From a virus (lineage: Duplodnaviria; Caudoviricetes): a stretch of DNA of 64,000 nucleotides. Below are positions 17,058 to 59,469 of this stretch, piece by piece. Each line of letters opens with the position of its first letter. Positions within the stretch are counted from its first letter, which is position 1. The stretch covers positions 13,567-77,566 of the IMG/VR virus record IMGVR_UViG_2974703250_000001; one strand, 5' to 3'. The notes under the pieces are model-generated. The model worked only from the letters and a program-made list of their open reading frames with translations. It was not told where the DNA came from and searched no databases. A program made the translations under genes and the position numbers.

Positions 17058-18365
17058 ATGGCCGAGACCGAGGAAAAAAATAAGAGGCGCAAGAGGGGTG
17101 ACGGAGGTCTCACTTACGACCCAAAGCGCGGCCTGTACATCGGCACCGTATGGGATAAGTGGCCGGACGGGAGGCCGCGCCAGCGCCGCGTCTCGTCAAA
17201 GAAAGAATCGGTGGCCGTAACGAAGCTGAACACGCTTCGCGCGGACGTTCTCAGCGGCAAGGCCGCGACGACGAACAAGACCATGACGGTTAGTGAGTGG
17301 CTGGACAAGTGGCTGGTGATCAAAAAGGCTGAGGTCCGGCCCAAGTCCTACGACAGCTACGAACTCGCGGTCCGGCTCTATATCAAGCCGCACATCGGGG
17401 ACAAGCGGTTGTCCAAGTTGACGGCGGCTGACGTGCGCGCCATGCAGACGGCGGTACAGAAAGGCACCAAGGGCATTAAGGGGTCTACCCGGAGCGCTCA
17501 GAAGGCCCACCAGACCCTCAACATGGCCCTCACGCAGGCCGTCCACGACGAGCACCTACACCGCAACCCATGCGTAGCCGTGAAGTTCCCCAAGCATGCA
17601 AAGAAGCAGCGTGGCGTGTTCGAGACGAGCGCGGCGGTTCACATTCTGCGGACGGCGGCGAAACGTGACGACGAGGACGACGCTAAGCGGCCTAAGCTCG
17701 CGTCCCGGTGGGTGGCCGCGTTTATGACCGGCGCGCGGCAAGCCGAGTGCATCGGTTTGGAGCTGGACCGTATCGACTTCAAGAACGACGTTATGGATAT
17801 CTCGTGGCAGTTGCAGCGGCTTTCGTATGACCACGGCTGCGGAGAGCCCGACGCTGACGGTAAGTACCCGTGCGGGCGGGTGCGAGTGGGGTACTGCCCG
17901 ACCCGCAAGTTCAACCCGCCACCCGGATTCGAGTACCGGCCCTGTCATCACTCGCTGTTCTGGACCCGGCCTAAGAGCTACGCCGGAGAACGGGTGGTTC
18001 CAATGGCACCGCTACTGAAAGAGTCGCTTAAGGTCCATATCCAGATGGATAAAGACCCGAACCCTTACGGGCTGGTGTGGCATCACCGAGACGGTAGGCC
18101 GATAAGCCAAGAGGACGATAACGAACAGTGGAACATGCTGATGGCTGCTGCTGGCGTCGATAAGAAGGCCGGAGAGGCTGTATTGCACGAGGCCCGGAAT
18201 ACGTCAGCGACGATGCTTCTAGAGTCGGGCGTTGACGTTAAGGTCATTCAGCAGATATTGGGGCACGCGTCGATCTTGCAGACGCGGGAATACCAGCGGG
18301 TGAGTTTGGAGCTGAGCAAGAGCGCCGTTAGTAATGCTTTCGACGCTCTGCTCCCGAACCTCTAG
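17058..18365 (+). CDS. int: Tyrosine integrase
   Basis: Catalytic R (TGARQAE), HEAR, LGH and Y (REYQ); N-terminal arm-binding and SAM-like domains; GGGAGG RBS before ATG 17058. Confidence 0.95.
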   Translation: MAETEEKNKRRKRGDGGLTYDPKRGLYIGTVWDKWPDGRPRQRRVSSKKESVAVTKLNTLRADVLSGKAATTNKTMTVSEWLDKWLVIKKAEVRPKSYDSYELAVRLYIKPHIGDKRLSKLTAADVRAMQTAVQKGTKGIKGSTRSAQKAHQTLNMALTQAVHDEHLHRNPCVAVKFPKHAKKQRGVFETSAAVHILRTAAKRDDEDDAKRPKLASRWVAAFMTGARQAECIGLELDRIDFKNDVMDISWQLQRLSYDHGCGEPDADGKYPCGRVRVGYCPTRKFNPPPGFEYRPCHHSLFWTRPKSYAGERVVPMAPLLKESLKVHIQMDKDPNPYGLVWHHRDGRPISQEDDNEQWNMLMAAAGVDKKAGEAVLHEARNTSATMLLESGVDVKVIQQILGHASILQTREYQRVSLELSKSAVSNAFDALLPNL

Positions 18366-29785: not shown

Positions 29786-30074
29786 TACGAGCTTGGCTGC
29801 ATGGCAGTCGTTGGATAAGGACTATCTGCGCGAGTCGCAGCGGGCGGTCCTTAAGGCGCTCGGGCGTCTCCGCAAGGGTGGCACCGATACGGATATCGCT
29901 CGGGTCTACAACCGGTCGAAGTGGGGCGCGGTGCTGCCGCAGTCACCTTCGGGTCTGCGTACGCGTCGGGCTGAGCTGGTGAAGCAAGGCTTTGTGGTCG
30001 ATTCCGGCGCGCGTAAGCGTCTGCCGTCTGGCCGCTTGTCGGTCGTGTGGACCAAGGCAAAGAGCGGGGCCTAG
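29766..30074 (+). CDS. Small winged-HTH-like protein
   Basis: GTDTDI...SPSGLRTRRAELV..G.V.DSG..K..PSGR..VVW pattern. Confidence 0.6.
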   Translation: MTITSGDTSLAAWQSLDKDYLRESQRAVLKALGRLRKGGTDTDIARVYNRSKWGAVLPQSPSGLRTRRAELVKQGFVVDSGARKRLPSGRLSVVWTKAKSGA

Positions 30075-30833
30075 TTGACGGCAACTAAGGCTGATCTAGA
30101 GGCGGCGTTGGCTGAGGCTGACGCCAAGATTGAGCATCTTGAGGAAGAACTCAAGAATGCTCCGCAGTGGGACAAGTCGGAGACGCCCACGGTTTACGAG
30201 GCGTGGAACCGCGTTATGCGCGATGTGCAGTTCATTAGTAAGAACTCGCGCAACGAACAGCAGAAGTTCAACTTCCGTGGCATTGACGCGGTGATGAACG
30301 CGGTTGGTCCGGTGCTGCGCCAGCACGGCGTAATCGTCGTGCCGACCGGGGCGGCTCACGAGGCAGAGCGGTACCTGTCAAAGAACGGCGGGCAGATGTG
30401 CAACCGCACCGCCGAGATGAGCTACCGCGTCTATGGCCCGGCTGGCGACTTCTTTGACGGGGTAGCGGTCGGTGAGGCCGCAGACTCCGGCGACAAGTCG
30501 ATGACTAAGGCCGAGTCCGTGGCGCTGCGTACGTTCCTGCTGCAATCCCTGATGCTGCCGACCGACGATCCAGACCCGGATGCCAGCTCACATGAGCGCG
30601 CGGTTCCGGTCCGTACTCAGGCTCAGCAGATGCCAGCCGCTCCGGACGATAACCCGGAGTCCCGCGAGGCGCGGGGAAAGCTCCGCTCTATGGCGGATGA
30701 AAAGGGCTGGAACCTGGGCGCTATTGCCGACAAGTTCTCTAAGGACAACAAGGGTAAGGCGCTTAAGGATGCCACGGCTGCCGAAGTCGAGGCTTATACG
30801 AACCTTCTAGCGACAGGGGCGGTTACCGTCTGA
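30075..30833 (+). CDS. erf: ERF-family ssDNA annealing protein
   Basis: FNFRGIDAVMNAVGPVLRQHG and DKSMTKAES.ALRTFL...L.LPT.DPDPD motifs. Confidence 0.85.
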   Translation: MTATKADLEAALAEADAKIEHLEEELKNAPQWDKSETPTVYEAWNRVMRDVQFISKNSRNEQQKFNFRGIDAVMNAVGPVLRQHGVIVVPTGAAHEAERYLSKNGGQMCNRTAEMSYRVYGPAGDFFDGVAVGEAADSGDKSMTKAESVALRTFLLQSLMLPTDDPDPDASSHERAVPVRTQAQQMPAAPDDNPESREARGKLRSMADEKGWNLGAIADKFSKDNKGKALKDATAAEVEAYTNLLATGAVTV

Positions 30834-31256
30834 TGTTCAACAACACGATTGCGGGTATCCCCGTGGAGCTGGTCGACGCTCCACGGGGCATTATGGTTCC
30901 GTGCGAATTGTGCTTCGTTAAAGAAGCTGAGTTCGCGGTCGGCTCGCACGATCACAAGCTGGTCTGCGAAGGCTGCCTTGATTACGGGGATAGCCGCCGG
31001 TTCTGGAACCTGGAACCGAGGCAGGCGCTTTGATCGAGTTCTTTACCGTCGTTGACACGACGCCTGGTGATCAGTCCGCGCGGGGCCGGTTAGCCCGGCA
31101 GTGGAAGCCTTCACGCGTCCATTCCTTGGCAGATGTCGGCCAAGCGCGCGCCCGTCGCACTCGCCTAACGAATGAGAACAAGGGGCGGCGCTACGACATT
31201 CTGCACACTGTGGTGCATGAGGGCGGCATTCCGCAGACGACATGGCTGGGTGACGA

Positions 31257-31529
31257 GTGAGCGATGTCAAATCTCAAGTGTTCGATGCGGACACATTCAT
31301 TAGCATTTTCCAGCCCGGAGACAGCGATAACGGCTGGCCTAACGAGCTGCAATACCTCTGGACTTCGGACCAGGCTCGTACCTTGGCGTTGCTCGACGAG
31401 GTTGTCTCGGCGGGCGGTATCAATAAGCCGGTTTGGGTCGGCCCGGATAAGCGGGTTTGGGATGGGCATCACCGCGTAGCCATCGCACTGGCGTTGCGGA
31501 TTCCTTTGCCTGTCGAGTTTCGCAAGTAA
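31257..31529 (+). CDS. ParB/Srx-like domain protein
   Basis: GGINKPVWV...VWDGHHRV.IA..L motif. Confidence 0.7.
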   Translation: MSDVKSQVFDADTFISIFQPGDSDNGWPNELQYLWTSDQARTLALLDEVVSAGGINKPVWVGPDKRVWDGHHRVAIALALRIPLPVEFRK

Positions 31530-31539
31530 AGGGGGAACT

Positions 31540-31899
31540 TTGAGTGAATACAATCCGGTCTCCATAGAGCAGGATATCTTAGCGACTGTTAACGAAATCT
31601 CGCAGGGTGTTATCACTGCGCGAGATGCCCACGAGAAGCAGTTAGAGTCCGAACGCGAGTACAAGCGCGCTTATGCGCGTGCGTTCATGGCCCATAAGGG
31701 TCCGCAGACTGAGAAGAAAGTCGCCGCGAACATTGTCCCAGAGGTCATGGAAGCCGAGGACATGCGGGACGCGTGGGACGTGGCTTACACGTACGCGAAG
31801 GAAAACAACAAGGCGCTTAGCTCAAAGCTAGACGCTATTCGTTCGGTGGGCGCTTCGGTGCGCCAGGCATACGCGAACGCGGGTAGGGGTGAGTGGTGA
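31540..31899 (+). CDS. Hypothetical helical protein
   Basis: GGGGGAA RBS; common actinophage pattern. Confidence 0.55.
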   Translation: MSEYNPVSIEQDILATVNEISQGVITARDAHEKQLESEREYKRAYARAFMAHKGPQTEKKVAANIVPEVMEAEDMRDAWDVAYTYAKENNKALSSKLDAIRSVGASVRQAYANAGRGEW

Positions 31900-31962
31900 T
31901 GGACGACGCTCAAGTGTGGGCCGTGGTGTGGGTCGTCGTGTTCATCCTGTTCGCCCTGGCCC

Positions 31963-32343
31963 TTGTCTGAGGCGAAATGCCGCCGTCTGATCAAGCCGCG
32001 CTCTGAGGGCTTCTGTGAAAGGTGTACCCGCTGGGGCGGGCTAACACTCCATCACCGACAGAAACGCTCTCAGGGCGGCTTGTGGACGGCTGAAAACTGC
32101 GTCCTGGTGTGCGGCCACGGTACGACCGGCTGCCACGGGTGGATTGAGCATCACCCCGACGCGGCAGAGGTCCAGGGCTGGCATATCCGGCCTTGGCTAA
32201 ACCCGGCTGACGTTCCGCTGCTTTGGCGCGGCTCGGACTGGGTTCTGTTAACGAGTGACGGAGGAATGAAGCATGTCGAGAAACCTCAAGGCGCTCCTAG
32301 TAGCTGGCGGGATAGTGTTGGCGCTGACCGCCTGCCAACCTAG
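31963..32343 (+). CDS. HNH endonuclease
   Basis: CERC...HHRQKRSQGG...NCVLVCG..TTGCHGWIEHH. Confidence 0.8.
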   Translation: MSEAKCRRLIKPRSEGFCERCTRWGGLTLHHRQKRSQGGLWTAENCVLVCGHGTTGCHGWIEHHPDAAEVQGWHIRPWLNPADVPLLWRGSDWVLLTSDGGMKHVEKPQGAPSSWRDSVGADRLPT

Positions 32344-32499
32344 CGCGGCTAACGGGGTTAGCACTGACCCTGGCACGGACGATTCGGGCGGCTCCGGCTT
32401 CGTGATCACCCCGAAGGGTGGGGTGGGTATTGACCTTGGCGGCGGTATCCACATTGACCCGTCGACCGGTGGCATCGGCTTCGGGGGCCTCCCGCTGGG

Positions 32500-33180
32500 A
32501 TGAACGACTTTGGGAAAATCCATCGCAAGTTCCACGAGCACCGGAAAGTCAAGCAGTGCAGTAACGGCGCTATCGGACTATGGGCCAAAGCTAACGCTTG
32601 GTGCCGCGATACTCGCTCAGCCGGATATATCCCGCGAGATATCGCGGAGACTTTCGGAACTCAGGGCGAAATCGGAGAGCTTATCGCGGCCCGGCTCTGG
32701 CTCAAAGATATGTCGGGTAGTGCGTGTGTGGGATTCCGGTTTAACGACTATCAGCACTGGAACGATGACGTTGAACCTGACACCGAGGCGGGGAACCTTG
32801 TTCGGAAGGTGGTTCCGGAAGCGCATCCTGCGGCGATCCGTAAGCAACTCGCTGCACAGTCTGCAAAGCTCCTGGCAGAGGGAATCGACTCCGAGATTGT
32901 TGAGCGAGCGCTTAATTTGTGGCTATCCAAAAGCTTGCCCGTCTCATTCCTTCCGAACCTTACTTCGGAGGCAATGAAAGAGGCGCAGCGCGCGGCCACG
33001 CTTAGGAACACTATTGGTGAGTGCCTTAAGTCGGGTCAGGTGTCACCGCTTAAGGCATATGGGTTCATCTTCACGCCTCCTAATCCGCCTGATGGGCTGA
33101 ACGTCGAGCAGCGGCGGCAGTTCATGGACTTAGAGAAGCGGAAGTGGCTCAGGGAACTTTGGGGAAGGGTTGCCGCGTGA
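32500..33180 (+). CDS. Putative replication initiator/helicase loader
   Basis: N-terminal K.H.KF.EH.KV....AIGLW.KA..WC pattern; upstream of DnaB. Confidence 0.55.
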   Translation: MNDFGKIHRKFHEHRKVKQCSNGAIGLWAKANAWCRDTRSAGYIPRDIAETFGTQGEIGELIAARLWLKDMSGSACVGFRFNDYQHWNDDVEPDTEAGNLVRKVVPEAHPAAIRKQLAAQSAKLLAEGIDSEIVERALNLWLSKSLPVSFLPNLTSEAMKEAQRAATLRNTIGECLKSGQVSPLKAYGFIFTPPNPPDGLNVEQRRQFMDLEKRKWLRELWGRVAA

Positions 33181-33463
33181 CCAGTGGCATTGCTTATCCA
33201 CGCCGTGATGACGCGGTGCGGTACGAGAAGTTCGATGGGACTCTTGAGTCGGCGCAAAGGATTGCGAATCTCACTGGATTAGTCCTGCATATCAAGGTTG
33301 CTCCTAATCGGAGCTTTCTACCCGGCGATGTGTTGAGCCTGGCCGAAATCAACGTAAATGCCGACCGGCTGAGGTTGGGTGATTACGTCGTTAAGAGTCG
33401 GACCGGGCAAGGCGTGATTGTTCCTGCGGATGACTTTCACGACAAGTACAGCAAGGACGGTAA

Positions 33464-34765
33464 TTGACAGGGGTTGACGAGCACTGGCCTGACGAGGAAT
33501 CGTACGGCGCACAGCCGCCAAGCGACCTGGGCGCGGAGCAGTGCGTTATTGGATCGGCCCTTCTGTCAAAGAAGGCCCTTAACACGCTAACGACGCTAAT
33601 CACGCCAGCCGACTTTTACCGGCCAATCCACGGCGACATTTTCTCAGCCGCTACAGCCCTAGCGTCAGCCGGTGAGCCGGTCGACGCGATGACGGTTGCC
33701 CGCGAGCTTGAGACGCGCGGCCAGCTCAAAAAGATCGGCGGGGCACCGTACCTGCTGACCTGTATGGAGAACACGCCGACCGCTACTAACGCTGAGGCGT
33801 ACGCGCGGATGGTCCTCGACAAGGCGAAGCTCCGGCGGCTCGACGAGCTGGGCACCCGCCTTAAAGCCCTGGCGTATTCCGAGGCCACGACGAGTGACGA
33901 CGTTAACGCCCTGATGGGCCAGGGTGAGAAGTTCTTCCGGTCTCAGCATGAGCCTGACGACACAGCGGTGTCGTTCGACGGCATGGTTGCCTCGTGGGAG
34001 GAATGGCAGGCCACCGACGTTGGTTCGATTCAGACGCCTTGGGAGGCTCTGAACGCACGTCTGAACGGCGGGCTACAGCGCGGGCGGCTCTACACCATAG
34101 CGGCCAGGCCGGGTGTCGGTAAGAGTGTCGCAGCATTGCAAATGGCGGCGTTTGCGGCCCACTGGGGTTTCCCGGCGGCGTATTTCACCTTGGAGATGTC
34201 CAAGGATGAGGTTACGTCGCGGCTTATCTCTGCCGGGTCGAACACTGACTTTAGCAAGATCATGCAAAAGCGGCTGGACCTACAAGACCGCGAGAAGATC
34301 GACCGGTACCTAAAGGACAGTCGCAATCAGCCTTTGCAGACTGTCGACCGGTCAAGGGTCACGGTTGAGCAGATCGTGGCGCACTGCCGGTCACTCGGAA
34401 AGCTCGACGTGCTCGTGGTCGATTACTTGCAGCTCATGTCAGCGAGCGACACTAAGGCGTCTCGTGAGCAGCAGGTAGCTCACATGTCGCGTTCGTTGAA
34501 GATTGCCGCTAAGGAACTGGACGTAGCGGTTATCGCGTGTTCGCAGTTGAACCGTGGCCCCGTTAAGGACGGTAAGCCGCGCGCTCCGACGATTGGCGAT
34601 CTGCGCGAGTCGGGAGCGATTGAACAGGATAGCGATGTGGTCCTGTTGCTGCATACCGACGAGGACGATCCAGGGATTATCCAGATGATTATCGGTAAGA
34701 ACCGAAATGGCCGGATGGGGGACTTGATGTTCAACTTTGAGGGCCACTATCAGCGGATCACATGA
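33464..34765 (+). CDS. dnaB: DnaB-like replicative helicase
   Basis: AARPGVGKS Walker A, LEMS, VVDYLQL, SQLNR, LRESG.IEQDSD, KNRNG. Confidence 0.95.
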   Translation: MTGVDEHWPDEESYGAQPPSDLGAEQCVIGSALLSKKALNTLTTLITPADFYRPIHGDIFSAATALASAGEPVDAMTVARELETRGQLKKIGGAPYLLTCMENTPTATNAEAYARMVLDKAKLRRLDELGTRLKALAYSEATTSDDVNALMGQGEKFFRSQHEPDDTAVSFDGMVASWEEWQATDVGSIQTPWEALNARLNGGLQRGRLYTIAARPGVGKSVAALQMAAFAAHWGFPAAYFTLEMSKDEVTSRLISAGSNTDFSKIMQKRLDLQDREKIDRYLKDSRNQPLQTVDRSRVTVEQIVAHCRSLGKLDVLVVDYLQLMSASDTKASREQQVAHMSRSLKIAAKELDVAVIACSQLNRGPVKDGKPRAPTIGDLRESGAIEQDSDVVLLLHTDEDDPGIIQMIIGKNRNGRMGDLMFNFEGHYQRIT

Positions 34766-35016
34766 GCGCTGAGATTAAGGCGCTTATGTCGCCTAAGCCC
34801 TTGCATTGGACCGAAGAGGCGGTGTGTCACGACGACCGGCGCTTTACCGGTCGCTACTCCGATCTAAGCACGGCTGACATTTCCCAGATGATTAGCAAGT
34901 GCTCTCGCTGCCCGGTTTACGAGCAGTGCGGAGACTGGGCCGTCCGTGAGCAAGTAATTGAAGTATTCGCAGCAGGCTATTGGAGGTCTGATGGACGCGT
35001 TACTGAACCGGATTAA
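34762..35016 (+). CDS. whiB: Divergent WhiB-family protein
   Basis: W...AVC...C..CPV..QC..WA with variant GVWGG (AAGYW). Confidence 0.65.
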   Translation: MSAEIKALMSPKPLHWTEEAVCHDDRRFTGRYSDLSTADISQMISKCSRCPVYEQCGDWAVREQVIEVFAAGYWRSDGRVTEPD

Positions 35017-35239
35017 TCGGCACGGTTGTGCTGGCTGCGGCCAGTCCGTGTATTTCACCCGTCACGGCGCTTGCGAGCGATGCGAGGGCGGCTACGACGA
35101 CGAGGAATACCCCCGTGACTGAACCAGACGAGGACTACGAGAACCCGGTAGGGGAAGTGCTGGACGACGAGACCGTGGACGAACTTGCTAAGTCGCACCT
35201 GGTCTACAGCATTTCCAAGTTCTTAGGGGTGGGGAACAA

Positions 35240-36100
35240 ATGGCCGTTCATCTGAGGGCTTACAACGAGGAACTGGGCACCGTCCGTGATGTGGCGGTGC
35301 CCTTTCAGTTTCCGGGTGGCGAATGGGACTTGAAGCAGGTCCATGAGTTCGACCAACGGGTGACATGGGTTGCGGACGTTCGCGGTGCTGACCTTAACGA
35401 CCTAATGGCGGCAGCTCTGCTGTCTAACGTCGCTGTGCAGCGTGGCGAGGACTTCGTTCTGATGATTCCGTACTTGCCAGCGGCCCGTGCGGACCGGGGC
35501 CACCCGACCGGGTGTGTCCCGTACGGCAACTTCATCTCGTCAATGGGCGCGTCGGGGATCATTACCGTTGATCCACACTCGCGCCGCATGCCGGACTACC
35601 TGGGATTCCAGGCTTCTACCGTCACGGCGCTGGACCCACTGCCGCTGCTGGACAGGGCTTTGGAGAGCCAGGGCCACTGGCGGTACGACGCAATCATTGC
35701 GCCAGATAAGGGCGCTGTGGATCGCGCTGGGGTCATCGCTAAGCATTACGGGCTAGACCTGGTTGTTTGCGACAAGGAACGCGATTTCGACACGGGCAGG
35801 ATCACCAAGTACAAGGTGCCGATCCTGCCTCGTAGCGGTAAGTACCTGGTGGTCGATGACATCTGCGACGGAGGCGGGACTTTCGCGCTGCTGGCTAGTG
35901 AGGCGCTTATCTCTAAGCCCAACCTAGACCTTTGGGTTACGCACGGCATTTTCTCCGGTAAAGCAACCATGCTGCCGAGTTACTACGGGCGCATTATGAC
36001 GAGTGATTCACACCCCGGCCATAACCGGGTCGGTGTCGCTACGTCGATTGTTCCCACTTTCACCTATATGCACGAAACGATGGTTAAGGGGCTTAAGTGA
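35240..36100 (+). CDS. PRPP-synthetase-like protein; candidate ADPR-PP synthetase (Adps) of NARP1
   Basis: [55 protein letters not shown]. Confidence 0.88.
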
Positions 36101-36513
36101 GCACGAACTATTCGCCTATCCAGTGGCCGGTGGCCGAGACGCTGCTAGAGCGGCAGGCGATCTTCATTTATGAGGGTGCCCGGTTGCAGGCGGCAGCCGT
36201 TAACGCGCCGATCATTCCTGAGCCGTGGGACAAGCGCGATGAAGCTTTCAAGACGCAGTTCCTTGGTATCACGCAGAAGATGATGGGTCCGGACCGCTTC
36301 ACTGATCCGGAAGCCGCCCACGATTCGTGGTGGCGCGCATACGAAGCCTTGGGGTGGAGCTATGGCCCCGTTCGGGATACGGAAGCTAAGACGCACCCGG
36401 ACATGGTTCCTTTCGCTGACCTGGGCTGGGAGGAACGCATGAAAGACGCGGTGTGGATAGCGCTGTGTGAAATCGCCCGGCAGTGGATCGTGGAGGAAAA
36501 TCCTTATGAGTAA
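36097..36513 (+). CDS. Stand-alone RyR-domain protein
   Basis: AHDSW...[23 protein letters not shown]...ERMKD matches the RyR repeat consensus (H..W....GW.YG..RD...K.HP.L.P...L...K..D). Confidence 0.82.
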
Positions 36514-37990
36514 GTTTGCACCCGTTGCGGCGCTCTTTCAGACAGACGCGTACAAGCTGGGCCATATCGACCAGTACGCGCTTAGCGGGGAAGTGACCCG
36601 CGTCTATTCCAACTGGACTAACCGGAAGTCGCGCCTGCCCGGCGTGGATAAGGTGGTCCACTTCGGATTGCAGGCGTATATCCAGGCCCACTTGGTGGAC
36701 GCGTTCGAGCCGTTCTTTAAGACGCTCGACGAGGACCAGGTAGCGGAGCTTTACGAGGAACGGGTAGCGCAGATTCTCGGGCCGGACGCGGCTAAGAGTA
36801 TCGGCAGCGACCACATTCGGAAGCTGCACCGTCTGGGGTATCTGCCGCTGCGGTTTAACGCGGTGCCGGAGGGTACGGCGGTGCCTATCGGGGTGCCGTC
36901 GTTCACGGTGGAGAACACGCACCCGGACTTCTACTGGCTGACGAACTACGTGGAGACCGGCCTGAGTGCCGGGGTGTGGCAGGCCAGCACGTCCGCGACC
37001 ATTGCCCGCGAGTACCGCAAGGTGCTTGACGCGGCTGCCAAGCGGACTGGCGCTGATCCGGCGGGCGTCGACTGGCAGTGCCACGACTTCTCTTACCGGG
37101 GCATGTCGTCGCACGAGTCGGCGGCGTCGTCGGGGGCCGCGCACCTGTTGAGCTTCACGGGTACGGATTCGCTGGTGGCGCTCGACTGGATTGACCGCTA
37201 CTACGGCGGCGAGTTCGTCGCGGGCTCGGTCCCGGCTACGGAGCACTCGGTGATGTGTACCGGCATTGAGACGGTCGGGGAGCTTGAGACGTTCAAGCGG
37301 CTGCTGGACCTGTACCCGACCGGCATCGTTAGCGTCGTCAGCGACACGTTCGACCTTTGGGCCGTGCTGACTCGGTATTTGCCGACGCTCTACGGCCAGA
37401 TCGTGGGCCGGGACGGCAAGCTGGTTATCCGGCCCGACTCGGGCGATCCGGAGAAGATCATTTGCGGTGATCCCAACGCGCCCAAGGGTTCTAACGAGTG
37501 GTGGGGCGCTCTTAACCTGCTTTACGACACGTTCGGCGGGGTTAAGAACGACGCGGGCTACATCGAACTGGACTCGCATGTCGGCCTGATCTATGGCGAC
37601 TCGATCACGTTGGATCGCGCTAAGAGCATCACTGATCGCATGGAGAAGCTGGGCTTCGCGTCGTCAAACGTGGTGTTCGGCGTCGGGTCGTTCACGTATC
37701 AGCACAACACGCGTGACACGTTCGGGTCCGCGATGAAGGCGACGTGGGCCGAGGTCGACGGCAGGGGCTACAACCTGCTCAAGAACCCGGTGACCGACGA
37801 CGGCACCAAGAAGTCCGCGACCGGGCGTCTGGCAGTGCTGCGCGACCTGCAAGGGGAGCTGGTGCTTGTCCAGAACGCAGACCAGTACGACGAGTTCGCA
37901 TCGGAACTGCGTCCGGTTTGGGAGAACGGAAAGTTCGTCCTGAGGCAGTCATTCGCCGGGGTCAGGGGCACTTTAGCCCAGCAGAGCTAG
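36506..37990 (+). CDS. NAMPT-like protein; candidate nicotinamide ADPR-transferase (Namat) of NARP1
   Basis: [68 protein letters not shown]. Confidence 0.9.
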
Positions 37991-38090
37991 ACGGTTAAGT
38001 CCGGGTTTCCGGACGTTTTCGTGGGCATTGGGTACATGCGACGTACTGTTGTGTGTACCCAACAGCCCGACGAAAGAAAGGGGGTTGAAA

Positions 38091-39029
38091 ATGACTCTGA
38101 CTCTTACCGCAATGCGCGGTTATCCCGGCTCGGGGAAGTCGACTACGGCGCGCACTGTTGCTAATAACACGGGCGCGGTGGTGGTTTGTCGTGACGAGCT
38201 GCGGAACATGCTGCACGGCGTGTACTTCAACGATGGTTCTAACCATCCTAAGTCGCCTAAGGACTTTGAGGATGAGGTAACCATTGCGGAGCGTGCGCAG
38301 GTCGCAGCCTTTCTCAAGGCTGGCGTTTCGGTAGTTGTCGACGCTACGCATTTGGAGCCGTCTTACTTGCGTAAGTGGGCGAAGATGGCCTCAATGTACG
38401 GCGCTGACTTCGTGCGGGTCGATCACATCACGCCGGTTGACGAGTGTCGTAAGCGGGACCACGCCCGGATGCTCGCTGGTGGCCGGTACGTGGGTGACAA
38501 GGTTATCGAGAAGATGGCTAAGCGTCACCCGGTGAAGAACTGGCCGGATATTCAAGCGCCACCGACGTTCACGCCGGAGCCGGTTGAGTGGGAGCCGGGC
38601 CTGCCTACGGCAATCATTGTCGATATCGACGGCACGGTGGCGCACATGACGGGGCGTTCACCTTACGACTACAGCCAGGTCCATACCGACGTGGTTGATG
38701 AGCAGATTCGATGGCTGGTCAACACGGTTGAGTCCGAAGGCGTGTTCGTCCTGTTCGTGTCGGGCCGGGATGACGAGTGCCGGGAGGCTACTGAGAAGTG
38801 GCTTGCGGAAAACGGCATCGTCTACGACGAGCTGTACATGCGGCCTACCGGCGCTAAGGACAACCACGGGAACAAGCTGCCCGACTACCTGGTGAAGTCC
38901 GACCTGTTCGATAAGCATATTCGCGGCAAGTACAACGTGCGGTTTGTGCTCGACGACCGGGACCAGGTTGTGAACCTGTGGCGTGCGCTGGGCCTTAAGT
39001 GCCTGCAAGTTCAGCCGGGCGACTTCTGA
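38091..39029 (+). CDS. pnk: Polynucleotide 5'-kinase/3'-phosphatase (T4 PseT-like)
   Basis: GYPGSGKS P-loop, RDELR, VVVDAT; HAD motif DIDGT, SGRD, LDDR. Confidence 0.92.
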   Translation: MTLTLTAMRGYPGSGKSTTARTVANNTGAVVVCRDELRNMLHGVYFNDGSNHPKSPKDFEDEVTIAERAQVAAFLKAGVSVVVDATHLEPSYLRKWAKMASMYGADFVRVDHITPVDECRKRDHARMLAGGRYVGDKVIEKMAKRHPVKNWPDIQAPPTFTPEPVEWEPGLPTAIIVDIDGTVAHMTGRSPYDYSQVHTDVVDEQIRWLVNTVESEGVFVLFVSGRDDECREATEKWLAENGIVYDELYMRPTGAKDNHGNKLPDYLVKSDLFDKHIRGKYNVRFVLDDRDQVVNLWRALGLKCLQVQPGDF

Positions 39030-39267
39030 TGGGCGTCACGATCACGACCAGCAAGGGTGGCGTGGCTATCTCGGATAGGCGGGTGCAGATTAGCTTGCCG
39101 GATACCGACGTGGTGTTTAAGTACGACGCGGACACGCACACAATCGTGCTTGAGGGCGCAGACGTTGCCCTGTCGCGCGAGGACAACACGGTTTATCTCC
39201 GGCAACGTGATGGGTTGAGGACAGAGCTTGTCCTCTTGCATCCGGATTGGCCCGGCTTTAAGGGTTA

Positions 39268-39654
39268 GTGCAGCACGTTCTAACCGTGCCTATGCCACGA
39301 CCGCCAATGAGCGCTAATGATCAGCGGAGAATGCACTGGGCGGCGCAGGCTAAGGCAAAGAAGCAAGTCGGAGAAGCAGCAAGAAAGCTGGCACAGCAGG
39401 CGGGTCTACAAGACCTAGGCCCGTCTGTTGTGTCGGTTACCTGGTACGCGCCAGATAAACGGCGGCGCGATACCGACTCACTAGGGCCGTTTCTTAAAGC
39501 AGCGCTGGACGGATTAGTTCAGGCTGGCGTGTGGCCCGACGACCATTCCGATTACGTCGTAGAGACACGCATGGCGATTAACAAATCGCAGGTACGAAAC
39601 CCGCGAATCGAGATAAAGGTTATAGAGGCGAATGCAGGATCAGGCTTGGCGTGA
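39268..39654 (+). CDS. rusA: RusA-like Holliday junction resolvase
   Basis: RRRDTDSL...KAALDGL...VWPDDH motif. Confidence 0.85.
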   Translation: MQHVLTVPMPRPPMSANDQRRMHWAAQAKAKKQVGEAARKLAQQAGLQDLGPSVVSVTWYAPDKRRRDTDSLGPFLKAALDGLVQAGVWPDDHSDYVVETRMAINKSQVRNPRIEIKVIEANAGSGLA

Positions 39655-39922
39655 GCTGGCGGTGTGCCAGTTCATTGACCCGGAAATGTTCTTCCCGCTT
39701 AAGGGCGGTGCAACAGAGGCACCTAAGCGTGTTTGCAACACGATGTGCTCGGTGCGTGAGGACTGCTTAGAGGCCGCGATGCAAGAGGAATACGGCTTAA
39801 GCAAAGGCATGCGCTTCGGAATCCGGGGCGGGTTAGTGCCGGATAGCCGTCATCGGCTAGCCCGTGAACGCGGCGAACGCGTCATTTGGGACGACGAACT
39901 AGACCTAGGAGAGGTTGCGTGA
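39632..39922 (+). CDS. whiB: WhiB-family transcription factor
   Basis: C...DPEMFFP...K.VC..C.VREDC...FGIRGG. Confidence 0.9.
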   Translation: MQDQAWRELAVCQFIDPEMFFPLKGGATEAPKRVCNTMCSVREDCLEAAMQEEYGLSKGMRFGIRGGLVPDSRHRLARERGERVIWDDELDLGEVA

Positions 39923-40305
39923 GGGCACGAAGCAGCGGAGCAAGCCGGGGGCCGGGGTCGTATGGATCGCGCACCCGGACGCCGCAAATCGCCGGGGTCA
40001 ACGTCGGCGGGGTGCGTCACCGCGAGATTCCCGAACTCGCCATTCCAGACCTGCCAGGGGCTCTCTGCAAGGGCATTGATGACCCGGAGATGTTCTTTCC
40101 CTCGCAACGCAAGGGAGGCCGTAAGGCTGCCGCTGAGGCCCGCAAGATGTGCCAGCGCTGCCCGATCCAAAAGCGCTGCTTGGAATGGGCGCTCGACTGG
40201 GACCGCGAGCACCCCGACTTCTACGACCGGTTGGAAGGCATCTGGGGCGGGACTAACGAAGCTGAGCGCCGGGAAATCCTTAAGGAGGAAAGCAATGCGG
40301 CTTAA
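39919..40305 (+). CDS. whiB: WhiB-family transcription factor
   Basis: LC...DPEMFFP...ARKMCQRCPIQKRC...GIWGG..E.ERR. Confidence 0.9.
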   Translation: MRARSSGASRGPGSYGSRTRTPQIAGVNVGGVRHREIPELAIPDLPGALCKGIDDPEMFFPSQRKGGRKAAAEARKMCQRCPIQKRCLEWALDWDREHPDFYDRLEGIWGGTNEAERREILKEESNAA

Positions 40306-42325: not shown

Positions 42326-43603
42326 GTGAGCTTTGATACGCCGGAGAACGTTAACTACGCGGCGACAATCGTCAAGCTGCCGCAGGGCCTTCTCCTAGAA
42401 GGTCTCGACAACCTGGTGGGCGTGCCCATGTTCGGCTACCAGGCGCTCACCCAAAAAGAAGGCTACGAGCTGGGCGCTCTGCGGGTGCTGTTCATGGCCG
42501 AAACGCAGCTCGACGCGGACTACGCGCGGGAGAACAACCTGTTCCGCGAGGCCACGTTGAACCGGGACGCCAGCGAGACCGGCTACCTAGAGCCGAACGC
42601 CCGTGTGAAGGCGATCCGGCTGCGCAAGCACCAGTCAGACGCACTGCTGATGCCGTTGTCGTCGCTGGCCTACACCGGCTACGACGTGTCCACGCTCAAG
42701 CCGGGCGACACGTTCGACAAGCTGAACGGCCACACGATCTGCCGCAAGTACATCCCGAAGGGTAAGAAGCAGGCCACGCAGGGCCAGCCCAAGGTGCGTA
42801 AGCAGGTCGACGAGCGTCTGTTCCCGAAGCATCTGGACACGGAGCACTTCTTCCGGAACCTGCACTACTTCCGTACGGAGCGGCGCGTTGTGGTGACGCA
42901 GAAGCTCCACGGCACGAGCTGGCGGGGCGGCAATATCCCAGTTAACCGGACTAAGGGCTGGTTTGAGCGGTTCATTAACTGGCTGGGCTGGTTCACCCAT
43001 GACACCGAGTACAAGCACGTCTACGGCTCTCGGAACGTCGTTAAGGGCCGCTCGGAGAATAACCACTACTACGCGTCTGATCTGTGGGCCGAGTACGGAA
43101 AGAAGCTTGAGGGGAAGATTCCCGAGAACTTCATCATTTACGGCGAGCTGATCGGATGGGTTGATAACGACACCCCGATTCAGAAGGGCTACACGTACAA
43201 CCTGCCTCCGGGCCAGTGTGAGCTTTACGTGTACCGGGTGGCGACGGTTAACAACCAGGGTGTGATTGCGGACCTGTCGTGGGAGGGCGTTAAGGACTTC
43301 TGCGCGAGCTTGGACCTTAAGACGGTGCCGGAGTTTTACCTGGGCGTCGATCATTACCCGTTCGCGGACAATGACGATGCCGTTGTCAAGATTGCCTCTG
43401 AGGCGTACCTGGACAAGCGGTATGCCGACGAGGGGTTCCCGAACGCGGTTCCGCTGAGTGACCGCAAGACGGTTGACGAGGGTGTCTGCGTCCGTGTTGA
43501 GGGCCAGATTCCGCACGTCTTTAAGGCGAAGTCTCCGAAGTTCCTTGAGCACGAGACTAAGCAGTTTGATAAGGGAGAGGTTGACCTTGAAGCGGTGGCA
43601 TAA
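42326..43603 (+). CDS. ATP-dependent RNA ligase (Rnl2/DRB0094-like with N-terminal extension)
   Basis: Motif I TQKLHGT, motif III IYGELIG, motif IV EGVCVR, motif V FKAKS. Confidence 0.88.
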   Translation: MSFDTPENVNYAATIVKLPQGLLLEGLDNLVGVPMFGYQALTQKEGYELGALRVLFMAETQLDADYARENNLFREATLNRDASETGYLEPNARVKAIRLRKHQSDALLMPLSSLAYTGYDVSTLKPGDTFDKLNGHTICRKYIPKGKKQATQGQPKVRKQVDERLFPKHLDTEHFFRNLHYFRTERRVVVTQKLHGTSWRGGNIPVNRTKGWFERFINWLGWFTHDTEYKHVYGSRNVVKGRSENNHYYASDLWAEYGKKLEGKIPENFIIYGELIGWVDNDTPIQKGYTYNLPPGQCELYVYRVATVNNQGVIADLSWEGVKDFCASLDLKTVPEFYLGVDHYPFADNDDAVVKIASEAYLDKRYADEGFPNAVPLSDRKTVDEGVCVRVEGQIPHVFKAKSPKFLEHETKQFDKGEVDLEAVA

Positions 43604-50237: not shown

Positions 50238-50310
50238 GCCACCTTAGCTCAGTTGGTAGAGCAGCCCCTTCGTAACGGGCAGGTCAGCGGTTCGACTCCG
50301 CTAGGTGGCT
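50238..50310 (+). tRNA. tRNA-Thr(CGT)
   Basis: Cloverleaf; anticodon loop TT-CGT-AA. Confidence 0.88.
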
Positions 50311-50311
50311 C

Positions 50312-50542
50312 GTGAGTGATAGATACCAGGCGACGGTTGGTCGCATAGTGCATTACCAGTCGTACGGCACGCCTAACGGCGAGTATTTACCCGAACCGCG
50401 CGCAGCCATTGTGACGACGGTGGGGCACGATGGAAATGTGGGGTTGGCAGTCCTTAACCCTACGGGCATGTTCTTTAACGAGTATGTGCCTTATGCGGAT
50501 AAGCCGACGCCGGGGCATTGGAATTGGCCTCCGCGCGTATAA
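50312..50542 (+). CDS. Conserved hypothetical protein
   Basis: TVGRIVHY...PRAAIVT.V...GLAVLNPTGMFF...GHWNWPPRV, a widespread phage pattern. Confidence 0.7.
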   Translation: MSDRYQATVGRIVHYQSYGTPNGEYLPEPRAAIVTTVGHDGNVGLAVLNPTGMFFNEYVPYADKPTPGHWNWPPRV

Positions 50543-50759
50543 CTGAATAGGGAGTAGATATGACTGATTTTGAGGGTAGAGACCCAATCAAGGTGGCTAA
50601 GGACGCGCTTGGCGTCGTGCAGGAACTTCGGGACCGCGCAGAGTGGCCTAAGGGTGAGATTCCCGAGCAGGCTAAGAAGCCTGCCAAGGTTGGGAACGCG
50701 TAAGTTTCAACAGTCATTGCCAAGGCTATGCGTAAGCATCCTCAAACCGGCAATGCAAT

Positions 50760-50833
50760 CTGGCTGTAGCTCAACTTGGTAGAGCGCTGGCTTTGGGTGC
50801 CAGGGGTTCGGGGTTCAAATCCTCGCAGTCAGA
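50760..50833 (+). tRNA. tRNA-Pro(TGG)
   Basis: Cloverleaf; CTGGC-TTTGGGT-GCCAG. Confidence 0.9.
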
Positions 50834-51182
50834 CCTAGGGAATCATCGGACCCGTACAATCCGGTGTTGTGGTGACAGAGTGTGCAGTTCGTAGCCGGGC
50901 TGCAATGTGGCGTGAAGCCCCTAAGCGGGGGCGGATGGAATCGGTTAGCTACCGTAGCGTGCTGGACTGAGCTTGATGGGGTACACATAGCCTACGGCTA
51001 CCCCTGTTTTGCTTGGACTCGGAGGCTGGAATACCTCCCCACTATCCCGTTTTTCTTTAGGGGAGCACCCTTGCCTTGTGGGCTTGTGGCCCCTTCGGTT
51101 GGTCCACCGACTGGACGGCCCGCGCTCGACGCGCGTTATAAGAAGCGGCCAGGGCGGGAGCCGTACCCAATCCCGCCGTCTA

Positions 51183-51259
51183 AGCTCGGTAGCTCAGTCT
51201 GGTAGAGCGGCGGTCTCCAAAGCCGCATGTCGCAGGTTCAAATCCTGTCCGGGTTGCCA
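51183..51259 (+). tRNA. tRNA-Trp(CCA)
   Basis: GCGGT-CTCCAAA-GCCGC; encoded CCA. Confidence 0.9.
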
Positions 51260-51282
51260 TTGGCGTACAAGCCGTGTACTAT
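51254..51282 (+). promoter_or_regulatory. Promoter for the main tRNA block with GTAC-N7-GTAC operator
   Basis: TTGCCA-17 bp-TACTAT; ATG 7 nt downstream (leaderless). Confidence 0.7.
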
Positions 51283-51622
51283 GTGTGACATGAAAGCTGA
51301 ACTGTTGAACGCAGCAGGTATCTTGGCGCGACGGCTGGGTGATCAGTTCTCCCGGTTGCACCTGTGGCTGTATGGGTTGTCGGGCACGTTGGATGGCATG
51401 GCTGACAGCGCCGGGTACTGGGATCGCCACGATGCCTAAGACGCCCGACTTTCGTCACTTGGTGGTCGAGGACACGGCTGGGTTTCTGCGTCGTCGCTTC
51501 GGCATGTCTGAGGTCGACGCGAAAGCTGAGGCTGAGCGCCAGGTGGACGCTCTGGCTGAGCGGTCCGAGCAGGGCTACTCAGACTCTTTGGGGCTGTGGT
51601 GACATAAAGGCCGATTTTTTCA

Positions 51623-51696
51623 GGGACCGTAGCCCAATTGGCAGAGGCAATAGGCTTAGACCCTATCCAGTGTGCGTTCGAGTCGCACCGGTTCTA
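51623..51696 (+). tRNA. tRNA-Leu(TAG), short variable loop
   Basis: ATAGG-CTTAGAC-CCTAT; variable region about 5 nt. Confidence 0.8.
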
Positions 51697-51768
51697 CGCT
51701 AAGTAGCTTAATGGTAAAGCGCCCGGTTGTGGTCCGGGTGATTCCGGTTCGACTCCGGGCTTAAGCCA
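51697..51768 (+). tRNA. tRNA-His(GTG)
   Basis: CCCGG-TTGTGGT-CCGGG; irregular acceptor stem. Confidence 0.78.
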
Positions 51769-51769
51769 C

Positions 51770-51842
51770 GCGCGGGTAGCTCAGTGGTTAGAGCACTGCT
51801 CTGATAAGGCAGGGGTCCGTGGTTCAAATCCACGTTCGCGCA
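51770..51842 (+). tRNA. tRNA-Ile(GAT)
   Basis: CTGCT-CTGATAA-GGCAG. Confidence 0.88.
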
Positions 51843-51906
51843 CTTATCACACCTATGTTAGTTTTGTCAAACAACCAAAACGGCGAAATTGGCGGTTTGG
51901 TTGTAT

Positions 51907-51978
51907 TGCCTGGTCTTCTAATTGGCAGGATGCCGGAATCTGACTCCGGTGGTTGAGGTTCGAGTCCTTGCCGGGCAG
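51907..51978 (+). tRNA. tRNA-Gln(CTG)
   Basis: CCGGA-ATCTGAC-TCCGG. Confidence 0.85.
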
Positions 51979-51979
51979 C

Positions 51980-52053
51980 GTGCTAGTAACCCATGTTGGC
52001 TGGGTGCCTGCCTTCCAAGCAGGATTTCGCGGGTTCGATTCCTGTCTAGCACA
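51980..52053 (+). tRNA. tRNA-Gly(TCC)
   Basis: CCTGC-CTTCCAA-GCAGG. Confidence 0.85.
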
Positions 52054-52102
52054 CACTGCCCCCTTCTAAGCCTCTCAGCGATGCTCAAATAGGAGGGGCC
52101 TT

Positions 52103-52175
52103 GCCTCGTTAGCTCAGTTGGTAGAGCTGCCGACTCTTAATCGGTAGGTCACAGGTTCAAGTCCTGTACGGGGTA
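52103..52175 (+). tRNA. tRNA-Lys(CTT)
   Basis: GCCGA-CTCTTAA-TCGGT. Confidence 0.92.
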
Positions 52176-52207
52176 CTTACACACACGTATTCAATGCTGG
52201 CTTACTG

Positions 52208-52289
52208 GGAGAGTACCGCTCATGGGAGCAAGCCGCCTTGAAAGCGGTAGGCAGGCGAAAGCCTGGGAGTTCGATTCTTCTACTCTCCG
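52208..52289 (+). tRNA. tRNA-Ser(TGA)
   Basis: GCCGC-CTTGAAA-GCGGT; long variable arm CAGGC-GAAA-GCCTG. Confidence 0.85.
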
Positions 52290-52295
52290 CGTTTA

Positions 52296-52367
52296 GGGGT
52301 TATAGCTTAGTTGGTAAAGCACCGGTCTTGCACACCGGCGTCCGGGGTTCGATTCCCCGTTTCTCCA
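52296..52367 (+). tRNA. tRNA-Ala(TGC)
   Basis: CCGGT-CTTGCAC-ACCGG; G3:U70 present; two U-U mismatches in the acceptor stem. Confidence 0.82.
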
Positions 52368-52381
52368 CTTAAGGGGGTTCG

Positions 52382-53071
52382 GTGTCGGAGGTTAAGAGCC
52401 TTTATGGCACGCGAACGTCGAAATACTGGGAGGCCGCTCCGGCGAAGATGGACGCGCTGAATCTGCGCATGATCTTCCCGTCGAGCAACCGTTACGGGTT
52501 CCCTGATCTAGAGCTGTGTGATTGGCTGCCGGATTGCTTGGGTGCGTGGCATCTGCCGCGTCAGCGGGACCGGGCAGCGGCCAACAACGGCGCTGTGCAT
52601 TTCTTTTTGGATGACTACCGCTTTGAGACCGCGTTTACGAGCCCTGAGAGGACCGTGGGTCGAGTTTTGGCGGTGGGTGGGGCACTGACGCCTGATTTCA
52701 GTCTGTGGCGCGATATGCCGCGTGCTGGGCAGCTCTGGAATGTGTACCGGTCGCGCTGGTGTGGTGCGTACTGGCAGAGCCAGGGCGTGAGGGTCATTCC
52801 TACGGCCTGCTGGGCTCGCTCAGACACTTTTGACTTCTGTTTCGATGGACTACCGCAGGGCGGGCCGGTGGCGGTCTCAGCGCTTGGTGTGCGGGCGAAC
52901 GGTGAGGATCGCGGCGTGTTCCGCGACGGCCTGGCCGAGCTGGTCGCGCGTGTCCGGCCTTCGTGCATCTTGAGCTACGGACGCCTGGTGCATGTCGACG
53001 AGCTTGATCTGCCGCCGGTTCGTGAGTATCCGACCTTTTGGGATGAGCGTCGTAAGGCGGTTAAGGCTTAG
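52382..53071 (+). CDS. DUF4417-family protein
   Basis: HFFLDDYRFE, TPDFSLWRDMP, QLWNVYRSRW.G.YWQ..G..VIPT..W, CFDG.P. Confidence 0.82.
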   Translation: MSEVKSLYGTRTSKYWEAAPAKMDALNLRMIFPSSNRYGFPDLELCDWLPDCLGAWHLPRQRDRAAANNGAVHFFLDDYRFETAFTSPERTVGRVLAVGGALTPDFSLWRDMPRAGQLWNVYRSRWCGAYWQSQGVRVIPTACWARSDTFDFCFDGLPQGGPVAVSALGVRANGEDRGVFRDGLAELVARVRPSCILSYGRLVHVDELDLPPVREYPTFWDERRKAVKA

Positions 53072-53080
53072 GGGGTTCTG

Positions 53081-53431
53081 GTGGGCGGTCGCGGTGGTGG
53101 TGGCGGTGGCCCGGCTAGTTCCCGGTCGTCAACGGTGACGTTGTATCACCGGACGAGTGCGAGTGCTGCGCGGTCGATTGTGGATCGTGGGTTCAATCCG
53201 GAGTTTCGGCCTGGCACTAACAAGTCTTATCGTGATGAGAACTCGCAGTATGGGTTCTTTACTAAGACGGTTAAGGGTCAGGAGGGATACGGCCAGAATG
53301 TTGTGGCTGTGGAAGTCCCTAAGTCTGCTGTGCAGCGTGATCCGTGGTCGGGTCATGTTCGTGTGAAGGTGGAAGACCTTAGAAACGCAAACTTCCGGCA
53401 CTATGAGGGTAAGCGCCGGAAGAAGCGGTAG
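53081..53431 (+). CDS. MGGRG-leader protein with ADP-ribosyltransferase-like core
   Basis: LYHRT...SIVDRGF...YGFFT...YG..VVAVEVP resembles the H-Y-type ART fold. Confidence 0.55.
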   Translation: MGGRGGGGGGPASSRSSTVTLYHRTSASAARSIVDRGFNPEFRPGTNKSYRDENSQYGFFTKTVKGQEGYGQNVVAVEVPKSAVQRDPWSGHVRVKVEDLRNANFRHYEGKRRKKR

Positions 53432-53432
53432 T

Positions 53433-53507
53433 GCCGTCATGGCTGAGTGGTTAGGCGTCGGACTGCAAATCCGGCTTATCCCGGTTCGATTCCGGGTGGC
53501 GGCTCCA
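53433..53507 (+). tRNA. tRNA-Cys(GCA)
   Basis: TCGGA-CTGCAAA-TCCGG; U discriminator plus CCA. Confidence 0.9.
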
Positions 53508-54054
53508 TTCGCAGGTATGCCCTACGGGTAGCTCTACGTAGGTGCGTAGGCACTTGAGGCATAGCGTAAGGCCCCACACGGCTACTCTCCGTGAAGGCGC
53601 TTGTATTCGGCGATTTCAGCGTCCGTGGCTTCGCGGATGCCGACAACTTTCCACTTGCGCCTGATCAGACCCTTATCCATGAGCCAGCCTTTGATCTTGG
53701 CGTAGACGGCGATAGGCCACAGGAAACGGCCTAGGCCAGCCCAGCCGGGTTCGATATCGTCGGGGTCGTTCTTGCTCATTCTTCCTCCATCCAAACGTTA
53801 GCGTCGGGCAGGATGCCCAACAGGTTGTTTACGAGACGGTCGGCTTTCTCGTGGTCTATGTCGCTGAGCACGATCCGGTCGTCGTCTATGACGTCTTTCA
53901 TCCAGACTGTCCACATGGCCTATGCCTTCCGTGGCTCTTGTGGGGCGCGCTTGCAGCCGGGTTTGCATGGTTGCCCAAGTTTTGCGCCACAGCCGCCGTA
54001 TGCGCGAGGGCAAAGCTCGGTTAGCGCGAGTTGTTTCATGGTTGGCATGTTTAT

Positions 54055-54127
54055 TCCTCCGTAGCTCAATTGGCAGAGCGCGCGACTGTTAATCGCGTGG
54101 TTGGTGGTTCGAGTCCACCCGTTGGAG
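54055..54127 (+). tRNA. tRNA-Asn(GTT)
   Basis: CGCGA-CTGTTAA-TCGCG; two acceptor mismatches. Confidence 0.85.
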
Positions 54128-54323
54128 CTTATTGGCGCTTAATCGTCACACTGGCTATGTGGCCGTGTTTCTCGATTTCGTGCTGTACCGCTTCGGCTGC
54201 TAGTTCACGTATGAACGTCTTAGCGGTGAGCGGTCCGACTAACTTAAAGTCCTCTATCAACTTGTCTAGGTCCATTGTGCAGACGAGTGTGATGAGGAAT
54301 TGACCTTTAGGGCGTTGCATGGG

Positions 54324-54396
54324 TGCCCCCACTAGGGATCGAACCTAGGACCCGATGATTAAAAGTCACCTGCTCTGCCAACTGAGCTATAGGGGC
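54324..54396 (-). tRNA. tRNA-Lys(TTT), the only leftward tRNA
   Basis: Reverse complement GCCCCTATAGCTCAGTTGGCAGAGCAGGTGACTTTTAATCATCGGGTCCTAGGTTCGATCCCTAGTGGGGGCA. Confidence 0.92.
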
Positions 54397-56599: not shown

Positions 56600-56659
56600 G
56601 GTTAAGCCGCCTTAGAATTACTTGGATTTCAGAACTTAGAAGAATTAGAAAAGTGAAAG

Positions 56660-56695
56660 CAGGTGGGCGGTACTTACTCGCCGCCCACCTGCTCC
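56660..56695 (-). terminator. Leftward intrinsic terminator
   Basis: GCAGGTGGGCG...CGCCCACCTGC hairpin with an A-rich tract on its left. Confidence 0.65.
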
Positions 56696-57060
56696 ACTAC
56701 TTCGACCACCTGTGCCGGGACGGATAGGGTGTCTCCGTCCTCGTTCGCGCCACCGGTCACCACAACCACGCCGCGAAGGCAGTCGACGCCGCGAGCGTGC
56801 GGGTTCAGGCTCCACCATAGAGCCGTGGCCTGCACGTTCTCCGGCTGATTCAAGATTCTACCCATGTCGTTGCCGTAGAAGGTGACATCGAACGCGCCAT
56901 CGCCTGCGACGGCTGCGGGTGTCCACCCGTATACGGCCTCAATATCCCCGTTGACCAGGGCGCGAATCGTAGCCAGCTCGGTCCTACGGGGAACGGTGAT
57001 CACGTCGTGCGTGCCGTCCAGGTTCAGGACTAGTGCCGTGTACTGCGGTTCGCTGCTCAT
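56674..57060 (-). CDS. DUF3846-like protein, leaderless
   Basis: L.TIRALVNGDIEAV...YGND.G.....PEN..AT..W...L.GVVVVTG..E.GDT. Confidence 0.7.
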   Translation of the reverse strand: MSSEPQYTALVLNLDGTHDVITVPRRTELATIRALVNGDIEAVYGWTPAAVAGDGAFDVTFYGNDMGRILNQPENVQATALWWSLNPHARGVDCLRGVVVVTGGANEDGDTLSVPAQVVEVVEQVGGE

Positions 57061-57093
57061 GTCACTCAGCGTACATGCGGTGTACCGAGTCTG

Positions 57094-59318: not shown

Positions 59319-59422
59319 CCGTAACGGTGCGCTAAAGGCCGCTAGGTTCGACGCTAAGCGACGAAACCGGGTCAACCGGATAGATGGCACTAGCCAGCCG
59401 CTAGGGATGGCTTAGAAACGAC

Positions 59423-59454: not shown

Positions 59455-59469
59455 TGTGTCTGGTACGGG

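Follow-up and report, generated by a model that had tools for sequence, protein, structure and literature searches.

A published adps-rydep-namat operon, almost certainly serving counter-defense, in DNA assigned to Mycobacterium phage DyoEdafos

The window analyzed here is a stretch of viral DNA of 64,000 nucleotides. It corresponds to bases 13567–77566 of a complete virus record of 77,566 bp, which was used for all statements on the whole genome. According to the open reading frame listing of the 64-kb window, positions 33464–39029 are occupied by a run of tightly spaced genes on the plus strand. The features of this run are given below, with match values in brackets.

33464–34765, plus strand: dnaB-like replicative helicase (Pfam DnaB_C 8.8e-63 and DnaB 1.7e-29; phrog_19 3.1e-111)
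34762–35016, plus strand: WhiB-like regulator, the start of which overlaps the dnaB stop (Pfam Whib 3.8e-5; phrog_1821 5e-29)
35028–35255, plus strand: open reading frame of 75 aa with no function assigned, its last 16 nt overlapping the adps start (phrog_6206 8.1e-21; without a match in Pfam)
35240–36100, plus strand: adps, PRPS-like, ADP-ribose pyrophosphokinase, first enzyme of NARP1 (286 aa; phrog_619 "ribose-phosphate pyrophosphokinase" 4.9e-72; Pfam Pribosyltran 1.3e-6)
36097–36513, plus strand: rydep, RyR-domain glycosidase, gp78 of DyoEdafos (138 aa; Pfam RyR 5.8e-8)
36506–37990, plus strand: namat, NAMPT-like, nicotinamide ADP-ribose transferase, second enzyme of NARP1 (494 aa; phrog_448 2.1e-191; Pfam NAPRTase 6.8e-36 and NAMPT_N)
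37999–38014, plus strand: G+C-rich hairpin with a T-rich tail, 9 nt 3' of the namat stop (terminator-like scan and direct reading; consensus match only)
38028–39029, plus strand: pnk, polynucleotide kinase/3'-phosphatase (Pfam HAD_PNKP 1.1e-50 and AAA_33 3e-24; phrog_505 1.1e-106)

An earlier note on this DNA, made from the sequence alone, had described a PRS-like and a NAMPT-like gene in one operon between dnaB and pnk. Both genes and both flanks are real and lie in one compact plus-strand string. The two genes are not adjacent, however: a RyR gene of 138 aa, which the note does not mention, lies between them. The adps stop and the namat start are separated by 406 bp, and rydep is the only gene in this interval. 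Its start overlaps the adps stop (GTGA), and at the other end it shares 8 nt with the start of namat. The longest open reading frame for namat spans 36467–37990; translation probably begins at the ATG at 36506, as in the relatives. The hairpin at 37999–38014 possibly marks the end of the operon. A promoter scan of positions 30000–40000 returned no sigma-70-type sites. Within the region 37999–38046, a GTAC-N7-GTAC palindrome is found at 38032, 3' of the hairpin and overlapping the annotated start of pnk.

Judged by its sequence, the window is Mycobacterium phage DyoEdafos (MN234187). The window Adps is, by eye, letter-identical to the DyoEdafos MN234187 row of Supplementary Table 1 of Osterman et al. 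(2024, bioRxiv 10.1101/2024.02.11.579819), in which this protein is flagged "Namat within 10 genes: Yes". Likewise, RyDEP is identical to PDB 35tm_A at 137 of 137 aligned residues (2–138; E 7.4e-95). In comparison with the NARP1-RyDEP operon described for DyoEdafos (Lopez Rivera et al., 2026, bioRxiv 10.64898/2026.05.28.727677; PDB 35tm), the locus and the gene order are the same, the RyDEP sequences agree fully across the solved chain, Adps is the catalogued protein, and no difference was detectable. The reading of the locus as NARP1 is correct but not new: for the same phage, the locus was listed in 2024, and its biochemistry and structure were reported in 2026. The nearest records in the phage collection searched are the cluster-L-type phages Bromden (90%), Douge, and Chaser. 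The description of the phage as temperate agrees with a tyrosine integrase at window positions ~17685–18305 and with the occurrence of an adps-rydep-namat module inside the 4.36-Mb chromosome of a Mycobacterium MAG. The laboratory stock of DyoEdafos has lost positions 69,489–73,978 of MN234187 (Lopez Rivera et al., 2026); this stretch is present here, at window positions ~55923–60412.

The window proteins share their folds and their ribose- and phosphate-binding residues with cellular Prs and NadV. In contrast to cellular Prs, Adps, which matched 11 NCBIfam Prs models, stays below the cut-off of each. For TIGR01251 the score was 81.7 bits against a cut-off of 113, and for the equivalogs 24.8–63.4 bits against cut-offs of 296–536. 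The Pfam search yielded solely the generic Pribosyltran family and no match to Pribosyltran_N. In the Mycobacterium MAG that carries the three-gene module, the true Prs scored 397.5 bits vs. 90.3 bits for the prophage Adps.

A maximum-likelihood tree of 109 proteins separated 78 Adps from 31 Prs by a single branch with an SH-aLRT of 100. The Adps side comprised the window, Bromden, Aegeus, Bas63, SPbetaL1, the MAG, and IMG/VR loci, and the Prs side 30 Actinomycetota and E. coli. As the Adps rows were gathered by Adps similarity and the Prs rows were confined to these 31 sequences, the tree is not an unbiased sample. Two loci from unpublished genomes (L057 and L058, from G003 and G020, respectively) were excluded from the tree; in the tally that includes them, on which no conclusion is based, Prs was present in 31 of 31 genomes. 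The window protein is located deep within the Adps side. The phylogenetic check proposed in the earlier note thus groups it with Bas63 and SPbetaL1, apart from all cellular Prs. The identity to these two first characterized Adps proteins amounts to 27–30%, which is barely above the similarity to Prs, and the placement in the family therefore depends on the tree topology, on the motifs, and on the assay in the literature.

With respect to motifs, Adps K179 aligns with the catalytic lysine K162 of SPbetaL1 Adps, the residue replaced in the K162A variant that served as inactive control in the NARP1 discovery study (Osterman et al., 2024). The ten-residue PP loop of the window Adps resembles that of Bas63 (DDICDGGRTF) and not that of E. 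coli Prs (DDMIDTGGTL). The loop and the hairpin are remodeled, reading DDICDGG..TF and K.R[DN].xTG in Adps vs. DDMIDTGGTL and KRRPRANV in E. coli Prs. Adps is also shorter (286 aa vs. 315 aa for E. coli Prs), and from the sequence its tail beyond the TxDS motif, in the region of the C-terminal α11–α12 module of PRPS, appears to lack ~14 residues. A sequence search of the PDB with Adps matched cellular PRPS only (best 5.8e-12), and the Adps entries named in PMC13586617 were not among the matches. The window Adps is 89.5% identical to that of Bromden and Namat 98.6% (adps 35240–36100 vs. L004:2744–3610). The differences from Bromden appear concentrated around residues 92–125, which suggests a mosaic joint inside adps.

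Namat is matched far better by SPbetaL1 Namat (PDB 9W5X/9W5W, 1.3e-137) than by mammalian NAMPT (~5e-62). An 11-residue motif fits the Namat-specific consensus GSX-phi-X-phi-X-phi-TRD, the adenine or selectivity clamp. Position 7 of the clamp, the second stacking position, is occupied by His, where Tyr or Phe is usual. R43 aligns with R40 of SPbetaL1, the stacking residue in the β1–β2 loop, and R309 with the catalytic arginine R306. A Namat homologue was found within 3 kb of adps in all 79 viral Adps loci fetched. Standard annotation does mislabel these genes, as had been anticipated: GenBank relatives are named "phosphoribosyl pyrophosphate transferase" and "nicotinate ribosyltransferase", and with 500.6 bits Namat exceeds the cut-off of 405 set for the NCBIfam equivalog "nicotinate phosphoribosyltransferase".

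No domain of the Nmnat fold (CTP_transf_like, PF01467) was found in the whole genome of 77,566 bp, while the same search was positive in 14 of 14 control genomes. The statement that an NMN adenylyltransferase is missing, made in the earlier note for the window, thus extends to the complete genome. NARP2, which combines Nampt with Nmnat, shares with this locus a NAMPT-fold enzyme using nicotinamide; it requires Nmnat and has no Adps, whereas this genome encodes Adps and no Nmnat-type domain, and NARP2 is therefore excluded. The Macro domain PF01661, one of three Macro Pfams used by the authors of NARP1-AP (Osterman et al., 2026, bioRxiv 10.64898/2026.01.28.702374), was not found in the genome either, so the locus is not a variant of that system. 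With the NARP1 of Bas63, SPbetaL1, and Fado (Osterman et al., 2024), the window has in common the pair of Adps and Namat, the phage-specific Adps clade, the catalytic Lys and Arg, the Namat clamp motif, and the lack of Nmnat. Unlike those loci, it has RyDEP between the pair, a mycobacterial host, and a temperate phage, and its Adps is distant from those of Bas63 and SPbetaL1. The assignment to NARP1 in the earlier note hence agrees with every feature that can be read from sequence, namely clade, clamp motif, catalytic residues, gene neighborhood, and missing Nmnat.

The embedded third gene encodes a small stand-alone phage protein with a RyR domain (PF02026, R12-type) at residues 72–117. H75, W78, H100, and D117 are found at the published DyoEdafos numbering, in which H75 and D117 form the catalytic dyad and W78 and H100 are ligand residues. 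Because sponge-type homologues keep these residues too, they alone are no proof of catalysis. RyDEP was reported to act as an inverting glycosidase on 2'cADPR and 3'cADPR, both of which it opens to linear ADPR. The purified gp78 protein was sufficient to degrade 2'cADPR, and this activity was lost from lysates after infection with a gp78-deletion phage. Furthermore, RyDEP protected Bacillus phages against Thoeris of types I and VI; the host in these experiments was Bacillus subtilis and not a mycobacterium (Lopez Rivera et al., 2026). Compared with phage Bromden, the window carries rydep as a clean insert of ~410 bp, placed precisely at the site where adps and namat overlap. A parallel is NARP1-AP (Adps, the Macro-domain phosphatase Adpp, and Namat), with which the window shares the logic of an accessory in the operon that turns an ADPR derivative into ADPR for Adps. 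The accessory of NARP1-AP is a Macro-domain ADPR-1''-phosphate phosphatase acting against aRES (Osterman et al., 2026), whereas that of the window is a RyR-domain glycosidase acting against Thoeris signals.

Taken together, positions 35240–37990 almost certainly constitute a three-gene, translationally coupled counter-defense operon, adps-rydep-namat, of DyoEdafos. The genes, their families, the catalytic residues, and the arrangement are read from this DNA, and the enzyme activities are those reported in the papers. None of the present results contradicts this reading. In the proposed scheme, NADase effectors of the host would cleave NAD+ to ADPR and nicotinamide. Adps would then convert ADPR and ATP to ADPR-pyrophosphate, from which Namat would regenerate NAD+ with nicotinamide (NARP1). 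By opening 2'cADPR and 3'cADPR, RyDEP would both silence the alarm signal and supply linear ADPR to Adps. In vitro, recombinant DyoEdafos Adps and Namat made NAD+ when fed with RyDEP-treated 2'cADPR (Lopez Rivera et al., 2026, Fig. 2f). The NARP1 of Bas63, Fado, and SPbetaL1 gave in vivo rescue from NAD+-depleting defense, and deletion of NARP1 in Bas63 and Fado sensitized these phages specifically to NAD+-depleting systems (Osterman et al., 2024). We infer that adps-rydep-namat would protect the phage against NAD+-depleting defenses such as SIR2, TIR, and SEFIR in mycobacteria. In a sample of 61 species genomes from the host genus, TIR_2 proteins occurred in 34 and SIR2_2 proteins in 10, domain presence not being equivalent to a proven NADase defense. 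The authors of the RyDEP study point to a lack of mycobacterial tools for work on Thoeris (Lopez Rivera et al., 2026).

The same chemistry might serve mainly the NAD+ economy, by recycling ADPR in the lysogenic state or in a host that grows slowly with limited NAD+, rather than counter-defense. Limited mycobacterial NAD+ may indeed constrain phage replication (Lopez Rivera et al., 2026), no NADase system is known to restrict this phage in its host, and NARP1 loci are also present in non-prophage regions of bacterial chromosomes. Nevertheless, we regard this explanation as improbable in view of the specific sensitization of the Bas63 and Fado deletion phages, the presence of a glycosidase for Thoeris signals within the operon, and the frequency of TIR_2 and SIR2_2 in the host genus. 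Far less credible still is a pair of ordinary auxiliary metabolic genes, with Prs forming PRPP and NadV (Nampt) converting PRPP and nicotinamide to NMN for nucleotide and NAD+ salvage without ADPR: the Prs and NadV folds, the equivalog score of Namat, and the NMN-forming activity of SPbetaL1 Namat in vitro, about half that of human Nampt (PMC12774641), speak in its favor, but the genome has no Nmnat to complete the step from NMN to NAD+, Adps reaches no Prs cut-off and groups apart from the Prs clade, Namat carries the clamp motif, and the published reconstitution with the DyoEdafos enzymes leads from ADPR to NAD+.

For the counter-defense operon, the value of the present analysis lies in labeling: genes that appear in databases as "prs" and "nadV"-like belong to a counter-defense pathway, and the unnamed gene in the middle is a published glycosidase of immune signals. 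Which mycobacterial defenses the operon may defeat bears on the strain-dependent success of therapeutic or temperate mycobacteriophages.

Additions to the published work are modest and concern the turnover of the RyDEP cassette among mycobacterial phages and prophages, and other genes at the adps-namat junction. The order adps-rydep-namat is also found in Aegeus and Baudelaire, which have M. chelonae as host and a RyDEP with 82% identity, in the Mycobacterium MAG, and in three IMG/VR contigs. The cassette occupies the same adps/namat junction in the window (36097–36513), in L003 (3501–3911), in L009 (5001–5393), and in L011, L012, and L016 (4001–4405 in each). On the Adps tree, the carriers are scattered, their closest Adps relatives are devoid of the cassette, and its distribution requires at least five gains or losses. 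The RyDEP cassette therefore moves or is lost repeatedly. An environmental phage contig (L110:1101–3810) shows the order RyR-namat-adps, with a RyR gene of 117 aa (PF02026, 1.5e-11) directly upstream of namat. This is a second gene order and probably an independent linkage of RyR and NARP1. Among RyDEP homologues of 56–64% identity, none adjoined NARP1 in the eight loci fetched, and Namat was absent from the five source contigs searched, one of which is complete. Based on these eight loci and five contigs, the link between RyDEP and NARP1 is facultative.

The other genes at the junction belong to several families. Myrna-like mycobacteriophages of 164 kb encode a 407-aa DUF5925 and AAA ATPase protein (phrog_33861) between adps and namat (L083:3894–5117, L084, and L108:3900–5132); no paper mentioning DUF5925 was found. 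In one sub-clade, to which the Aegeus lineage belongs, the gap holds a helical protein of 138 aa (phrog_17862) followed by a small membrane open reading frame (L085:3843–4259, also L087, L089, and L090). A beta-rich protein of ~100 aa (phrog_1810) was found at this site in environmental phages (L103:979–1272 and L104:2773–3075). For phrog_17862 and phrog_1810 alike, there was no match in Pfam and none of informative value at the level of the fold. The former was predicted as a helical model of low confidence (pLDDT 74, pTM 0.33). The model of the latter (pLDDT 77, pTM 0.63) gave no Foldseek match in the PDB at E ≤ 0.001, with a best VIA-align Z of 2.9.

It is conceivable, though on balance rather unlikely, that the junction is a general cargo slot for enzymes or sponges that feed or protect the rebuilding of NAD+. 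If so, RyDEP and the published Macro phosphatase would be two examples, and the uncharacterized inserts of the relatives, none of which occurs in this window, could be further countermeasures against ADPR signals or NAD+-based defense. The junction is also a target for selfish elements, as judged from genes for HNH-type homing endonucleases in the adps-namat gap of several unrelated phage lineages (L107, L113, L118, L130, and L136).

The neighbor downstream, pnk, carries a HAD phosphatase domain and was considered as an Adpp-like accessory of NARP1. This candidate was rejected. Of 87 loci, 38 have the gene no more than 3 kb from NARP1, but these all belong to actinophage lineages with shared synteny, and an RNA ligase gene is present in this genome at 42326–43603, 3.3 kb downstream of pnk. 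For these two reasons, a T4-style RNA repair pair is the simpler explanation, and pnk is probably not part of the pathway that rebuilds NAD+. Together with 14 tRNA genes at 50238–54396, pnk and the RNA ligase look like a kit for tRNA repair and replacement.
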